Origin: a virus | Taxonomy: Duplodnaviria > Caudoviricetes | Length of the DNA stretch: 52,875 bases | Reading direction: 5' to 3' (one strand) | IMG/VR virus record: IMGVR_UViG_3300044478_000026 | Span: 1-52,875 of that record | Shown: in pieces, positions 1,426-36,677 of the stretch | Layout of the letters: each line of letters opens with the position of its first letter | How positions within the stretch are numbered: the stretch's first letter is position 1 | Position numbers and translations under genes: made by a program | Notes under the pieces: generated by a model | The model's input: the letters and a program-made list of their open reading frames with translations, nothing else | The model's database searches: none | What the model was told of the DNA's origin: nothing

Positions 1426-3273
1426 TCACGCCTTGTCCGCCCAGCTCGCAACTCCGGACTCCGCCTCGCACTTCGTCGGCACCTTCTTCATCATCGGAGC
1501 CATCCCCTCAACCATGCCGGACTCCAGAGCTTTCCCCACGGCTTCGGCGAACTCAGGACCGTCATCCGCGTGCTCACCGACGATTTCGTCGTGGACCATG
1601 TGGCACATGCCGACCTTCGCGCCGCGCTCCAGCAACACCTTCCCGCCGGAGAGCGCCTTGAACTTCTTGTAGACGATGGGGAGGCTGTTCTTGAGCCCGT
1701 CCGCGCCGGAGCCCTGCACTGGGGTGTTGAAGAACTCGTTGTGCGCGGTCTCCGGGTCAAGGAACCGGCGACGCCCCCAGATGGTGCGCGCCTGCTTGGT
1801 GCGCTGCGCCTCTCGAATCACGAACTGATGCCACTGCTCGACCCCGTGGTACGCCTCGAAGAACTTGCGGCGGAACTTCATCGCCTGCCCTTCGGACAAG
1901 GTCACGCCGTAGTTCGACTTCGCGTAGAGCACCAACTTGGCAGCCTGCATCCCGTAGATGAAGCCGAAGTTCACCGGCTTCGCCTGCTGCCGCTGGTCCT
2001 TCGACACGAGGTGCTCTTCAACGCTGGCGAGGAGCGAAGCAGTCGCCCGGTGAGCGTCGCGGTCATCCACGAAAATCTGGATGAGGACAGGGTCGCCTGA
2101 AATTTCCGCGACGAGCCGCATCTCGATGTTCGAGTAGTCGGCGATGGCGAGCTTCCGCCCGTCTGGCGCGCGGAAGCACTCTCGGAACGCCTTGTCCCGA
2201 GGAATCTGCTGGAGGTTCGGCTTCGACGAGGAGTACCGCCCCGCGCCCGTGAACGGCCAGAACTCGGTGTGGATGCGTCCCGTCCTCGGGTTGACGTGTT
2301 CGAGGTACTCGATGCCGAAGGACTTCTTCCGCTGGGAGTAGCCCCGGTACTCGATGAACTTCTCGACGATGGGGTACTTGCCCGCCAGCATGGCGAGCGT
2401 GATTTCCTTCGTGTCCTGAAGCGGAACTGTCAGATCCTGATGCGTCTCTGCATCCTTGATTTTCTGCGTCAGCCCCATGCGCCGGAACGACTCCAGCATC
2501 TGTTCCGGCGAGTCGAGGTTCAGACTCTTCTTGTCGGAGAGCGGGATGCCGGGCAGCGCGAGCTGGTCGAACGGGCTCGGCAACTCCTGCATGAGCAGCG
2601 CGCGCGAAGCCCGCCACCGCGCCTCGTTCATCCGCGCCAGCGCAATCCACCGCTCCTTGTCGATGTAGAAGCCGTTCAGCTCGATGGTGGCTTCGGGGAG
2701 GATGGCATTGAACTCGATGGCGGCGACGCGCACGAGATCCGCCGCCTTGAGCTTCGGAATGAGCACCTCACGCAGCGGCAAGAGGTGCGTGATGTCCTCA
2801 GCGGCGTAGTCGAGCTGGTCCTTGGTCAGCTCAGGAGCAGACCAGTCGGAGCCGCCGAGGTCGGGCGCTTCGGGTCCAATCCCCAGCTCACGACGGTAGA
2901 GCGCGTACAGGTCGTGCGCGACGTGCTTGTACCCGTTGTAGAGCACGTTGGACGCTCGAAAGGCGTCGAAGAGCCGACGGAACTCGACGCCCTCCTTGTA
3001 GAGCATCCACTTCTGGTCGAACTTGAGGTTCTGCCCAACGATGACCGCGTTGGTCGCGTTGAGCGCCGGAACCAGCGCTCCCAGAGTTTTCGTGCGGAAG
3101 AGATCAACGACGTACCGCCCCTTGCCGGTGTTGAGAGAGCACAGCCGAATCTCCCCGTCACGCGGGGAGAGCGCTGTCGTCTCAAGGTCGAATGCCACCG
3201 TCGGGCACGACTCCACCTCGCGGGCGATGTGCGCCAGCCGTTCAGCGTCTGTGACGTACTCGTACGAGAGCAT
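1426..3273 (-). CDS. polA: DNA polymerase family A with 3'-5' exonuclease
   Basis: Exo motifs AFDLETT, GQNLKFD, YAAED; polymerase motifs ADYSNIEMR, RQQAKPVNFGFIYG, MVHDEI; no 5'-3' exonuclease domain. Confidence 0.97.
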   Translation of the reverse strand: MLSYEYVTDAERLAHIAREVESCPTVAFDLETTALSPRDGEIRLCSLNTGKGRYVVDLFRTKTLGALVPALNATNAVIVGQNLKFDQKWMLYKEGVEFRRLFDAFRASNVLYNGYKHVAHDLYALYRRELGIGPEAPDLGGSDWSAPELTKDQLDYAAEDITHLLPLREVLIPKLKAADLVRVAAIEFNAILPEATIELNGFYIDKERWIALARMNEARWRASRALLMQELPSPFDQLALPGIPLSDKKSLNLDSPEQMLESFRRMGLTQKIKDAETHQDLTVPLQDTKEITLAMLAGKYPIVEKFIEYRGYSQRKKSFGIEYLEHVNPRTGRIHTEFWPFTGAGRYSSSKPNLQQIPRDKAFRECFRAPDGRKLAIADYSNIEMRLVAEISGDPVLIQIFVDDRDAHRATASLLASVEEHLVSKDQRQQAKPVNFGFIYGMQAAKLVLYAKSNYGVTLSEGQAMKFRRKFFEAYHGVEQWHQFVIREAQRTKQARTIWGRRRFLDPETAHNEFFNTPVQGSGADGLKNSLPIVYKKFKALSGGKVLLERGAKVGMCHMVHDEIVGEHADDGPEFAEAVGKALESGMVEGMAPMMKKVPTKCEAESGVASWADKA

Positions 3274-3281
3274 CGTACGGG

Positions 3282-3764
3282 TCAGTCTGCGCGCACCTGC
3301 CGCCTACGCCCCTTCGAGAGGCGGTACTCGCCGGGCGTCACCTTCTCCAGCCACCGCGCCCGAATGAGCCGTCGCAGGCTGTTCCGCACCCACGAATTGG
3401 CGCGCTTGGCTGGCTGGCTCGGAAATGCCACGTCAGCGAGGTCCTCGATGGTGAGCACCTCCCGCGCAGTCCGCGCGACGAAACACCCGACGACCTTCTT
3501 CTCCTTCTTGTTCAGGGCGTCGAAGGACAGGGACTCGATGGGCGGCGCGGACTGCCCCGACACGGGCTTACGCCTCGCCTTCGCCCTCGCCGCCTTCACC
3601 TTCGCCTTCGCCTTGGCAGGCTTGGACTTCGGCTGGCGCTTGCGCCGCCCCGGCACGAGCAACGTCGCCGTCGCGTGCGCCTGCGGCTGCTTCAGGAGGT
3701 CAGCCGCCTTGCTCAACTCCGAAGCCAACGGCGCGGAGGTCTCCACCTGCGTCTCGGTGCTCAT
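3282..3764 (-). CDS. Putative DNA-binding protein (K/A-rich linker plus winged-HTH-like C-terminus)
   Basis: KPAKAKAKVKAARAKARRK segment; LTIEDLADVAF...WVRNSLRRLIRARWLEKVTPGEYRLS resembles a wHTH. Confidence 0.55.
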   Translation of the reverse strand: MSTETQVETSAPLASELSKAADLLKQPQAHATATLLVPGRRKRQPKSKPAKAKAKVKAARAKARRKPVSGQSAPPIESLSFDALNKKEKKVVGCFVARTAREVLTIEDLADVAFPSQPAKRANSWVRNSLRRLIRARWLEKVTPGEYRLSKGRRRQVRAD

Positions 3765-34296: not shown

Positions 34297-34330
34297 TGAC
34301 CCTCGGTTCTCGACGAGCGAGGGTCCGTCC

Positions 34331-34657
34331 ATGCACACCAATATCAGCAAGACTCCGCGTTGTCGGTGGTGCGACAGGGAGCCGGAGTTTTCTCCGACCG
34401 TGGCGACCACGCGCGTGTGCGAGCACTGCGGCGCGATGCAGGACCCCATCATCAGCCTCAGTGGTCCGGCAGGCGGCAAACCGCGCATCTCGTTCTTCAT
34501 CAATCCGGACGACGGACTCTTCGTCGAGTTCGAGAAGAGCGTCGGAGATGAGACCGTGCGCTACACGCTGTCTCCCGCGCTCCTCCAGAAGGCGGGTGTT
34601 CCGGTCTTCAAGGCACCCTTCCCGCTCAACGGGAAGGTCGTGGACCGGGGTCTGTAA
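34331..34657 (+). CDS. Zn-ribbon protein
   Basis: CRWC...CEHCG. Confidence 0.65.
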   Translation: MHTNISKTPRCRWCDREPEFSPTVATTRVCEHCGAMQDPIISLSGPAGGKPRISFFINPDDGLFVEFEKSVGDETVRYTLSPALLQKAGVPVFKAPFPLNGKVVDRGL

Positions 34658-34865
34658 GCTCCTGTCCCCGGATGAGGGCGCAGAGCTTCGACATCTCCTC
34701 CGCGCATCCCTTCAGCGTCCGCAACTGCGCCTCGACGGCAAGCGCGAGCGTTGGGTCACTCTTCTTGATGGACTCCAACGCCGGAGCGAGAGCTTTCTCG
34801 GCGCGGGCGGCTTGGTCCACCAGCACGTCGAGCACGGCTCGGGCGGCTTTGAGGTCTATCTCCAT
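34626..34865 (-). CDS. Hypothetical helical protein
   Basis: GGAGAG SD inside a hairpin. Confidence 0.6.
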   Translation of the reverse strand: MEIDLKAARAVLDVLVDQAARAEKALAPALESIKKSDPTLALAVEAQLRTLKGCAEEMSKLCALIRGQELTDPGPRPSR

Positions 34866-34895
34866 CTCTCCAGAACTAAAGGATCTGGAGAGATG
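34863..34895 (-). promoter_or_regulatory. 12-bp hairpin occluding SD and ATG
   Basis: CATCTCTCCAGA-N9-TCTGGAGAGATG. Confidence 0.6.
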
Positions 34896-34905
34896 AAGCT
34901 AGTTC

Positions 34906-35481
34906 CTACACCCCGAGGGCGTACTGGAAGTGTACGCGAGAGCAGAGCGCGACGAACTCCTCGTGGGTGAGGTTGCTCTTCATGAGGTTCATTTTTCGAG
35001 TAACCCAGTGCAGGTTGTCCTTTGAACTGTCTCCGCCACGCAGAGTAGGTGTTTTGTGGTCGAGAGATGCGCTGCTCGGTGTTCTTCCACCCAGCGTCAT
35101 TGGTTCTCCAGAGTAGGCGCACAGTCCCTGCTGTCCTTGCCAGAGCGCCCACGCCTCTAAGGGGTCTGCTCCGTGCGCGACCGCCCGACTCTTGATCCAA
35201 CAGGATTCACAGAACGACTGAGAGGCGTGGTGGACAATCGCTTTGCCGCCCCCACACCAAGTGCAGAGTCCGCTGGCTCTGCGCCGGGCAAAGCGCCGTT
35301 CTCTCTGCTTCCGAAATCGGGCGCGGCACGGAGCGCATTCATTCCGCCCCTTCGTAGGTCGTCGGTCTCCGCACTTCGGGCACAGACCGGCCCGACGTCG
35401 TGCATCTACGCGAACAACACGGTTCTCGCAGCGGTTGCATCGACCACTCGGATGTTTCGACTTCGCTCCACACGGGCACAT
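34906..35481 (-). CDS. HNH (homing) endonuclease with repeated CxxC Zn-ribbons
   Basis: GLCAYSG...SLDHKTP...GGDSSKDNLHWVTRKMNLMKSN; repeated GLCxxCG units; more A/T-ending codons than flanking genes. Confidence 0.85.
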   Translation of the reverse strand: MCPCGAKSKHPSGRCNRCENRVVRVDARRRAGLCPKCGDRRPTKGRNECAPCRARFRKQRERRFARRRASGLCTWCGGGKAIVHHASQSFCESCWIKSRAVAHGADPLEAWALWQGQQGLCAYSGEPMTLGGRTPSSASLDHKTPTLRGGDSSKDNLHWVTRKMNLMKSNLTHEEFVALCSRVHFQYALGV

Positions 35482-35520
35482 GCCCGGAGCTTCTCACACG
35501 CCGTTGGCGTATTGAAAGTG
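34933..35520 (-). mobile_element. Putative free-standing homing element carrying a replacement endolysin 3' end
   Basis: Defined by duplicated HFQYA(N/L)GV-stop coding segments at 35494-35520 and 34906-34932. Confidence 0.65.
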
Positions 35521-35988
35521 CATACTATCGCGTGTCGAGCGCCACGCACCGCCCCAGTTCCAGCCCTGTTCGGTGAACGCCGCCACCCACTCCGGAGGCA
35601 GGTCCGTCACCAGCGTCTTGGCGACCGGGTTCTTGTCCCAGTTCACGTCGAACGCGCAGCCCCACGAGTGCAGCGAGAGCGGGTTCTTCGGGTCGTGCAT
35701 CTGGTGGCGCGGAACATGACCGCCCAGCATCCGCACCTTGTACTTCGGCGCGCGGCGCATCGCTTCGCCGAGGCAGTACTCGAAGATGGGGACGACCTTG
35801 TAGTGCATCTGGATGTTGAGGCCCGTCTTGCAGACGTTCCGCAGCATCACGATGTTGTCCTTCTCCCATGTGTCGTCGATGTCGATGGCACCCTTCGCCA
35901 GCTCGACGTACTTGAACTCGCCGTACACCTTCTTCACGGCAGCCCAGCCGTTCGGGGGCGGGAACGAAACTGCAATCGGGGTCGGCAT
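35494..35988 (-). CDS. Endolysin, peptidase M15 family
   Basis: R...LSLHSWGCAFDVN...WGGAW...DSMHFQ Zn-peptidase motifs; AGGAG SD. Confidence 0.9.
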   Translation of the reverse strand: MPTPIAVSFPPPNGWAAVKKVYGEFKYVELAKGAIDIDDTWEKDNIVMLRNVCKTGLNIQMHYKVVPIFEYCLGEAMRRAPKYKVRMLGGHVPRHQMHDPKNPLSLHSWGCAFDVNWDKNPVAKTLVTDLPPEWVAAFTEQGWNWGGAWRSTRDSMHFQYANGV

Positions 35989-35997
35989 GGTGTTCTC

Positions 35998-36378
35998 CTA
36001 GCGGTTCTTCCGTTCGGGGGCAGGTCCTCCGATGCCTCCGAGGACCGGCGGCAGCTTACCTTGAACCATCCCCGCTCGAAGCGTTTCGAGCTGCTCTGCA
36101 TGGTCGAGCAAGACGCTCGTGCGGCGAGTCAGGAACTGAAGCTGCTGGGTGAGCAGGTCCAACTCCTGCACGGTGAGGTCGTACTGCTTGGCCTGAGCGA
36201 GGGTCCGAATGCTCTCGGGGCGCACACACTCCTGCCGCACCCGGATCCGAATCGCCTCGTCGAACTCCTGCTTGAAACTCCGACGCTGAAACTCCCCGGC
36301 AGCCAGCCACACCACCACCAGCACGAGGATGGCTCCGACGAACTTCAGGAACGCGAACAGGACTTCTCTCAGCATCAC
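35998..36378 (-). CDS. Membrane protein (single N-terminal TM, helical), possible lysis accessory
   Basis: VLFAFLKFVGAILVLVVVWLAA; directly upstream of the endolysin. Confidence 0.6.
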   Translation of the reverse strand: MMLREVLFAFLKFVGAILVLVVVWLAAGEFQRRSFKQEFDEAIRIRVRQECVRPESIRTLAQAKQYDLTVQELDLLTQQLQFLTRRTSVLLDHAEQLETLRAGMVQGKLPPVLGGIGGPAPERKNR

Positions 36379-36677
36379 TACCTCCTCGGCTTGAGAGCCG
36401 CCTGAACGACCCTGAGCGCCTGACGCCCGGACTCCGTCCGACGAACTTCCCGGTCCAACAGCAGTCCCTCCAGCCTCTTCAGAAGTGCCGGGGGAGGTGG
36501 GAGGTGGATCTTACTGATCTGCGCCGGTCTGTCACCCGCCGGAGCCTTGATGCTCACGAGCCCCCAGTCATTCTCCGAGGTTGAGGCGTTCTCCTTGAAG
36601 CCCTTCAGCTTCGACAGCGCCTCCGCCCGGCTACGGCACAACACTCCGACAGCGGTCCAAGTCCTCGGTGTCCGCAT
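36378..36677 (-). CDS. Hypothetical protein
   Basis: GGAGG SD; coupled. Confidence 0.6.
   Translation of the reverse strand: MRTPRTWTAVGVLCRSRAEALSKLKGFKENASTSENDWGLVSIKAPAGDRPAQISKIHLPPPPALLKRLEGLLLDREVRRTESGRQALRVVQAALKPRR

Follow-up and report, generated by a model that had tools for sequence, protein, structure and literature searches.

Organization of the endolysin and HNH genes

The window examined here is the whole 52,875-base stretch of record IMGVR_UViG_3300044478_000026, a viral contig fragment of a tailed phage with a CheckV completeness of about 34% and a G+C content of 63.7%. Its minus strand carries an M15 endolysin gene followed by a gene for an HNH nuclease, and the two encoded proteins end in nearly the same eight residues. 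The arrangement is best read as a free-standing HNH homing-endonuclease cassette that lies inside the endolysin coding sequence and replaces its 3' end, and this reading is held with good confidence. The endolysin open reading frame (ORF; 35988..35494, 164 aa) comes first, and a 12-nt spacer separates it from the HNH ORF (35481..34906, 191 aa). The endolysin has its closest relatives on viral contigs that are 187 kb and 190 kb long. Alleles that contain the HNH gene are called occupied and those without it empty; X6 is a sequencing run that yielded an empty allele. The features of the locus, all on the minus strand, are as follows.

35494..35988, minus strand: endolysin coding sequence, a Peptidase_M15_4 or LAS-type zinc peptidase with its own TGA (PF13539; PHROG; PDB 2vo9)
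34933..35532, minus strand: 600-nt segment missing from the HNH-free allele (X6 contig matching 34505-34932 and 35533-36059)
35521..35532, minus strand: codons CGC GAT AGT ATG (R-D-S-M), left-flank signature of occupied alleles; the empty allele has K-D-A-M
35494..35520, minus strand: replacement tail H-F-Q-Y-A-N-G-V with TGA, which now ends the endolysin (within the segment missing from X6)
35482..35493, minus strand: 12-nt spacer from the endolysin stop to the HNH start; a Shine-Dalgarno sequence is not evident
34933..35481, minus strand: HNH endonuclease proper, codons 1-183 (PHROG 1035; Cas9 HNH profile match; alignment)
34906..34932, minus strand: displaced native endolysin tail H-F-Q-Y-A-L-G-V with TAG, forming HNH codons 184-191 and stop (ends the X6 endolysin)

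The endolysin ends in ...RDSMHFQYANGV and TGA (RDSM-HFQYANGV), and the HNH protein ends in ...LCSRVHFQYALGV and TAG (SRV-HFQYALGV). A repeat between these ends had been reported in an earlier note on this DNA, and a recount of both 27-nt ends (35520..35494 and 34932..34906) gave the same figures: 20 of 27 nt and 7 of 8 aa are identical, and the copies lie 588 nt apart in the same frame. Among the 946 pairs formed by the 44 long ORFs of the window, the endolysin and HNH are the sole pair with more than four of eight identical terminal residues, so the match is not due to chance. A match to HFQYALGV better than 4/8 was not found anywhere within the other long ORFs of the window. In the window, each of the two stops is followed by GAA (35482-35493; 34903-34905), and in L086, a metagenome contig with the same layout, each is followed by TAG (2918-2920; 3506-3508). 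The repeat may extend 3 nt beyond the stops, which would make the duplicated unit 30 nt.

The endolysin matches PF13539 (Peptidase_M15_4) in Pfam with an E value of 2.2e-15, and several PHROG endolysin families match as well. Its closest solved relative is PDB 2vo9, the L-alanyl-D-glutamate peptidase Ply500 (E 1.2e-4). In this alignment, SLHSWGCAFD lies over SNHNYGVAVD and DSMHF over DYPHF. With a chain offset of 12 residues, the aligned 2vo9 positions are His80, Asp87 and His133, which are the zinc ligands of Ply500 (PMC3315420). Peptidases of the Ply500/LysB4 type (PDB 2vo9, 6akv) have in common with the window endolysin an SxHxxGxAxD motif and, at the C-terminal end, a D-x-x-H motif whose His is the third zinc ligand. 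The similarity amounts to 25 bits, and the window endolysin (164 aa) differs from these enzymes in having one domain only and no cell-wall-binding domain. The first codon of the replacement tail encodes the third zinc ligand. This histidine (His157) aligns with His133 of Ply500. The HNH insertion point thus directly precedes the codon for this ligand, and the earlier note was correct in naming the His as the last zinc ligand (PMC3315420).

An HNH-free allele and the native endolysin tail

Logan contigs from four public runs were compared with positions 34300-36400 of the window. Run X6, from activated sludge and belonging to a different study, contains a 2,142-nt contig (depth 17.8) that covers both flanks without the HNH gene. 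It matches the window in two pieces, 34505-34932 (428 nt, 15 differences) and 35533-36059 (527 nt, 16 differences), and omits the 600 nt between them (34933-35532). In their place are 12 letters that code for K-D-A-M on the minus strand. The omitted segment comprises the R-D-S-M codons, the stop-terminated replacement tail, the 12-nt spacer and the first 183 codons of the HNH gene.

After the Thr codon at 35535..35533, the X6 endolysin thus reads through K-D-A-M into the copy located downstream (34932..34906) and ends at the TAG of that copy; the contig then continues into the sequence below 34905. This is the HNH-free allele that had been predicted from the window alone. Positions are known for 13 of the 15 differences in the piece on the downstream side, and none of these falls within the 27-nt tail. 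The downstream copy is the native endolysin tail because the HNH-free X6 endolysin ends in it, and the HNH gene has taken this displaced tail and its stop as its own C-terminus, as had been claimed. Relative to the element-free allele, the insertion is internal to the gene and lies eight codons before the endolysin stop.

Run X3, from wastewater, contains a 76,319-nt contig that spans 34303-36059 including the HNH gene, with 98 differences from the window. At least 13 of the 15 differences of X6 in the downstream flank are common to X3. Pieces within the HNH gene at 99% identity or more were found in run X2, from sediment and another study. The cassette is present in X1, X2 and X3 and absent from X6; it is carried by some very close relatives and missing from another. 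Run X2 also contains a more diverged relative (record 11, 15 differences in 123 nt). Before window position 35548, this record codes on the minus strand for ...N-W-K-G-V-K-D-A-M-H, with the K-D-A-M of the empty type.

The same arrangement in diverged phages

A blastn search of 34300-36400 against phage GenBank DNA gave no match. Scans of viral contigs with single proteins found three endolysin loci, all of them without this HNH, and one distant HNH locus. A metagenome scan with a four-sequence HNH alignment found two further occupied loci, L086 and L087.

In L086, the endolysin ends in ...RDSMHFQYATGL (IRDSMHFQYATGL and TGA), and the HNH gene starts after 12 nt. The L086 HNH is 73% identical to that of the window and ends in SRVHFQYATGL and TGA. 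All eight residues of the L086 tail pair are identical, and all differences in these eight codons are synonymous. The L087 contig starts with ...VDSMHFQYATGL, and the TGA of its endolysin overlaps the ATG of the HNH gene as ATGA. Its HNH is 65% identical to that of the window and ends in SRVHFQYASVS; the tail copies are 581 nt apart and out of frame with each other. Downstream of the L087 HNH are genes of 158 aa and roughly 590 aa, which directly trail the endolysin in the HNH-free loci L001 and L002. The window, L086 and L087 have an identical SRV|HFQYA junction, and a substitute 3' end keeps the endolysin ORF whole in all three.

The HNH gene is present in the window, X2, X3, L086 and L087 and absent from X6, L001, L002, L003 and L091. 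The HNH-free endolysins end in KDAMHFQYA(V/T)GL in L001 and L002, in KDAMHFQYCRGV in L091 and in KDYMHFQFATGC in L003. Those of L001, L002 and L091 use the codons CAC TTC CAG. A scan for HF[QE][YFW] in the window region, L001, L002, L003, L086 and L087 revealed only the known copies and no further fossil endolysin tails.

The sequence to the left of the insertion point distinguishes the two kinds of allele. DSM precedes the zinc-ligand His in all three occupied alleles and in none of the five empty ones (L001, L002, L003, L091 and X6), which have DAM or DYM. The codons CGY GAT AGT ATG CAC TTT CAR are common to the window and L086, the endolysin genes of which are 69.7% identical overall. The L086 endolysin gene is 82% identical to those of L001 and L002 overall and 65-70% identical in the last 20 codons, whereas its identity to the window is about 70% overall and 73% in the last 20 codons. 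This flank signature looks like co-conversion beside a homing site. Comparison of these alleles establishes the insertion and its exact limits, its recurrence in three diverged phages, its polymorphism and the flank signature.

The spot behind the endolysin appears to collect other insertions, resembling the WHO element clusters behind FBA1 of yeasts. Directly behind the endolysin stop, L001 (3484-3644) has a remnant of roughly 150 nt of a different HNH type with a C..C..NCH..H motif. At the same spot, L087 (626-850) has a 70-aa ORF with a CxxC motif, and L002 (3484-3500) has neither insertion. The three sequences rejoin at a common GAAGAGG(A/C)GTGACG.

The HNH nuclease and its foreign tail

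The HNH protein matches PHROG 1035 with an E value of 1.6e-17, and more HNH PHROGs match. A profile of nine HNH family sequences matches structures of the Cas9 HNH domain at positions 111-177 (E 5.9e-6). The catalytic D-H...N...N residues (D141, H142, N156 and N165) are invariant across these nine aligned sequences. The sequence features identify the second ORF as a nuclease of the HNH (beta-beta-alpha-metal) superfamily with a Cas9-type HNH domain. Three zinc-ribbon-like CxxC...CxxC modules are located in the N-terminal 100 residues, and these plausibly bind DNA.

The family comprises 3,425 representatives at E<=0.001, and tails were counted in 162 collected members. HF[QE][YFW] occurs in four of the 162, namely P0001-P0003 and a 64-aa fragment that is identical to the HNH protein of the window itself. 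P0001-P0003 are the closest relatives of the window HNH (64-73% identical), and their ORFs are intact. The other family proteins continue after a conserved EFVxLC with endings such as xxVAxRFP. Beyond the three closest relatives and the fragment, none of the 158 remaining homologues ends in HFQYAxGV, an ending that would have spoken against capture of the tail from the endolysin. In 79 viral loci with distant HNH relatives (<=48% identity, best segment), the match mostly stops at query residue 183-184. Because the relatives stop aligning at about residue 183, the junction SRV|HFQYA lies where the earlier note had placed it. Judged from these alignments, the HFQYA... tail is foreign to the HNH family.

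A second tail capture in a distant member of the family

The C-termini of HNH family members in 82 loci were compared with the ORF ending near the HNH start. Besides L086, only L024 stood out. In L024, the start codon of an HNH of 36% identity overlaps, as ATGA, the stop codon of a DUF2586 gene of 489 aa. The DUF2586 protein ends in FAQKVGG and the HNH in RARKVGG and TGA (3005-3031; 3574-3600), and each common tail codon is spelt differently. The TGA of the HNH gene lies directly before the start of the next gene, the GGAGG ribosome-binding site of which lies inside the HNH-borne tail. The KVGG end was found in 6 of 69 DUF2586 proteins, that is, the query and five homologues at 73-85% identity; one more homologue, at 72% identity, ends in QKVS. 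Because DUF2586 homologues end likewise, the KVGG tail is native to the DUF2586 gene. L024 is a second, independent case of tail capture.

A viral-contig scan for element-free DNA relatives of the L024 host gene returned L024's own contig alone, and none was found among 124 pattern matches in a genome scan. No tail capture was found in the other 78 distant HNH family loci. In L070 (2990-3004/3469-3483), L081, L083 and L085, an upstream ORF of 91-110 aa and the HNH both end in K-W and a stop. These ends could be minimal two-codon tail captures or chance. A 4/8 tail match in L011 was rejected, the sequence being A/T-rich and of low complexity.

It is an evenly balanced question whether tailed phages have their own version of a "third category" of homing element, known to date from yeast nuclei and the mitochondria of fungi. 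Such elements would be HNH cassettes that home by 3'-end replacement into the last codons of conserved genes, without an intron or intein, in at least two lineages of one HNH family (the M15 endolysin and DUF2586 of L024).

Composition, age and points against a homing cassette

The G+C content at third codon positions (GC3) of the HNH gene is 0.64, the lowest of the 44 ORFs of the window (others 0.70-0.94). The HNH gene is likewise below its host genes in L086 (0.56 vs 0.74) and L087 (0.47 vs 0.65), and its GC3 tracks that of the host genome in each of the three cases. Codons ending in A or T make up 69 of the 183 codons of the HNH proper vs 15.9% in the other ORFs (p 7.7e-13) and none of its last eight codons.

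The earlier note had also seen a contrast between atypical A/T-ending codons in the upstream tail copy and usual codons in the downstream copy. This contrast is real in the window, although weakly so: GAT, AGT, TTT and CAA are chosen among their respective synonymous codons in 12%, 6%, 7% and 14% of cases across 42 other window ORFs, and Fisher's test gives p 0.017 for the pre-chosen rare-codon stretch. It did not hold in L086 and L087, where the differences go in both directions. What appears to be general is that the two copies are spelt differently, and not that one copy is A/T-rich. Rare codons as a proof of import were rejected, being weak alone and not general.

The nonsynonymous divergence (dN) of the HNH genes is 0.21-0.36 among the window, L086 and L087, and synonymous sites are saturated. 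The pattern points to an old protein under selection. Saturated synonymous sites, selection and host-tracking GC3 argue that the HNH is a long-term, still polymorphic companion of this phage group, and not a one-off recent arrival.

Several points weigh against the interpretation as a homing cassette. The HNH_4 family of Pfam is matched at 18.6 bits, which is below the gathering cut-off of 22. At most two of the 15 differences in the X6 downstream piece, beyond the 13 with known positions, could fall inside the 27-nt tail. The direction of the X3/X6 polymorphism (gain vs loss) is read from the K-D-A-M that is common to X6 and distant empty alleles. Of 100,000 shuffles of the endolysin codons, 11,913 (11.9%) reach four A/T-ending codons within six, and the rare-codon cluster is not repeated in L086 or L087, where synonymous differences run both ways. 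With a nucleotide identity of 59-66% among the window, L086 and L087, the HNH genes are old, so that vertical inheritance, and not recent invasion, may account for a large part of their history. Tail capture in one of the 79 distant family loci means that it is not a trait of the whole family. Cleavage, homing and immunity of the cassette are inferences from sequence.

Alternative explanations

The alternative that survives best, although it is unlikely, is an old immobile resident. It proposes one ancient insertion that was inherited vertically, with empty alleles arising by deletion or recombination and the nuclease either kept for another use or decaying. The HNH is as diverged as or more diverged than the endolysins (66% vs 70% nt identity between the window and L086), the identical SRV|HFQYA junction in all occupied loci fits a single origin, and the following of each host's GC3 suggests long residence. 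Against this alternative, the HNH ORF is intact in P0001-P0003 as well as in the three loci, its catalytic residues are invariant, and its dN is far below the saturated synonymous divergence. Occupied and empty alleles are also interleaved: L086 and L087, which are occupied, cluster with L001 and L002, which are empty, and not with the window. The occupied X3 and the empty X6 have at least 13 of 15 flank differences in common, as described above. The K-D-A-M of X6 argues against a simple deletion between the tail copies, which would have kept R-D-S-M.

A very improbable alternative is that the HNH is an ordinary intergenic free-standing nuclease gene and that the tail repeat is a by-product of sloppy recombination without a role. 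T4-type free-standing nuclease genes do occupy intergenic positions, and an overlap of 11-24 bp with the end of the preceding ORF is frequent among them (PMC2988022), and the spot behind the endolysin has received other insertions in L001 and L087. The present insertion, however, lies eight codons inside the coding sequence, and without the upstream copy the endolysin would lose its zinc-ligand His. In the three loci, the copies keep their amino acids and differ at synonymous sites, and the second host gene (DUF2586, L024) has the same pattern.

A third alternative can practically be dismissed, namely that the segment is a nuclease-encoding group I intron or intein that is lost from the RNA or the protein, which would make the downstream tail the true endolysin end. 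Some phage endolysin genes do carry introns with nuclease genes, and the window and L086 have their tails in the same frame at a distance of 588 nt. Each of the three loci, however, has a full endolysin tail and stop ahead of the HNH, and the copies are separated by a stop codon and by an ATG of the HNH gene itself. An in-frame insert is excluded because the L087 copies, at 581 nt, are out of frame. An Rfam search of 34500-36200 found no intron family at E<=1 and gave only four sub-threshold microRNA hits, in the hairpin at 34850-34907. The earlier description of an element without intron or intein agrees with these results.

The reading of a homing cassette within the endolysin gene is thus preferred, and the interpretation in the earlier note is largely supported.

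Proposed mechanism

The cassette comprises three parts: a substitute for the last eight endolysin codons and stop, a short spacer, and the gene of the nuclease. Lacking a 3' end of its own, it reads on in frame into the displaced native tail and ends at the stop of that tail.

In a mixed infection, the nuclease would cut alleles that lack the HNH gene, at the K-D-A-M-H-F-Q-Y codons or close to them. Repair would then use the occupied genome as template, with the left end pairing within the endolysin body and the right end pairing with the native tail and the downstream DNA behind the nuclease gene. This repair would copy the replacement tail and the nuclease gene into the recipient. The occupied allele would escape cleavage in both copies. 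The upstream copy differs from the empty allele at 8 of 27 nt (K-D-A-M to A codons), the downstream copy is without the left half of the site, and neither would keep the whole site.

The C-terminus of the nuclease would be renewed from the gene of each recipient, as the right-hand homology begins in the tail. The tail could stay endolysin-like without selection in the nuclease for this reason. The borrowed tail would also preserve the translation signals of the downstream gene.

Relationship with known homing elements

The 3'-end replacement by homing endonucleases in fungal mitochondria, which the earlier note had cited as a precedent, is real. Mobile ORFs (mORFs) bring a foreign C-terminus to atp6 in Allomyces macrogynus and to atp6, atp9, cox2 and nad3 in Glomus (PMC3630166). 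In the mORFs as in the window, an endonuclease gene lies in the 3' coding part, the inserted C-terminus restores the host ORF, and the native C-terminus is found downstream and is closer than the inserted copy to ORF-less relatives. The mORFs described encode LAGLIDADG or GIY-YIG nucleases in organelle genomes, whereas the present gene encodes an HNH with zinc ribbons in a tailed-phage genome, and the piece duplicated here is eight codons only. The nuclease here uses the displaced native tail and stop, whereas the mORFs, in the portion of the account used here, are fused to the upstream gene or leave the native tail untranslated.

WHO elements of Torulaspora and Lachancea yeasts replace the 3' part of FBA1 (PMC7282813; bioRxiv 10.64898/2026.08.13.744650). 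They likewise enter an essential gene without intron or intein by 3' replacement; allele-specific cleavage and target diversification are described for them. Their nuclease genes and remnants pile up behind the host gene, much as L001 has an HNH remnant and L087 an additional ORF behind the endolysin. WHO nucleases differ in being LAGLIDADG-zinc-finger proteins of the eukaryotic nucleus, and the part of FBA1 that they replace is its 3' half. Experiments have demonstrated cleavage and gene conversion by WHO elements, whereas the present case is known from sequence alone. The 2026 preprint, as far as its available text goes, places the WHO category in yeasts and names bacteriophages in one general sentence only (bioRxiv 10.64898/2026.08.13.744650).

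The present HNH also resembles the T4-type seg and mob genes. These are phage-borne genes outside introns and inteins that lie beside a conserved gene, presumably the one cut; their start is coupled to or overlaps the upstream stop, their presence is variable, and flanking markers are co-converted (PMC2988022). The window HNH has its own ORF, no intron or intein and a variable presence, as such genes do. Its location is not intergenic, the insertion being within the endolysin coding sequence. T4 free-standing genes are intergenic or split a gene in two (nrdA, gene 60, gene 43), and none with a replacement 3' end or a borrowed host tail is described in the portion of the T4 account used here (PMC2988022). 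A survey of ICP1 lists free-standing and gene-interrupting nuclease genes and, in its available text, no 3'-end replacement (PMC10448857). No phage description of the 3'-end-replacement layout was found in the literature, as judged mostly by titles and abstracts. The locus is a phage HNH version of a homing-element type that is already known, and the empty allele is natural evidence of an unusually direct sort.

If this reading is true, phages invade the interiors of essential genes as WHO elements and mORFs do, with a different nuclease family and with eight codons, and the known routes by which selfish nuclease genes move between phages are extended. It would also explain puzzling short protein-tail repeats between adjacent phage genes, and a nuclease C-terminus that repeats the end of the upstream gene could be a simple signature for further cases. 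The natural occupied and empty alleles, with flanks about 95% identical, would provide a direct system for the study of the target site, immunity by recoding and co-conversion in a phage lineage from the environment.

Neighboring genes

Just upstream of the endolysin is a 126-aa ORF (35998-36378, minus strand) with a hydrophobic N-terminal stretch, FLKFVGAILVLVVVWLAAG. No family matches this ORF, which may encode a holin or spanin belonging to the lysis cassette. Downstream of the HNH gene, a hairpin with a 9-bp stem (CTCTCCAGA / TCTGGAGAG; 34866-34892, minus strand) lies over a GGAGAG ribosome-binding site, which precedes the ATG at 34865 of a 79-aa ORF. The X3 and X6 differences in that hairpin (34867, 34891 and 34892) are not compensatory.

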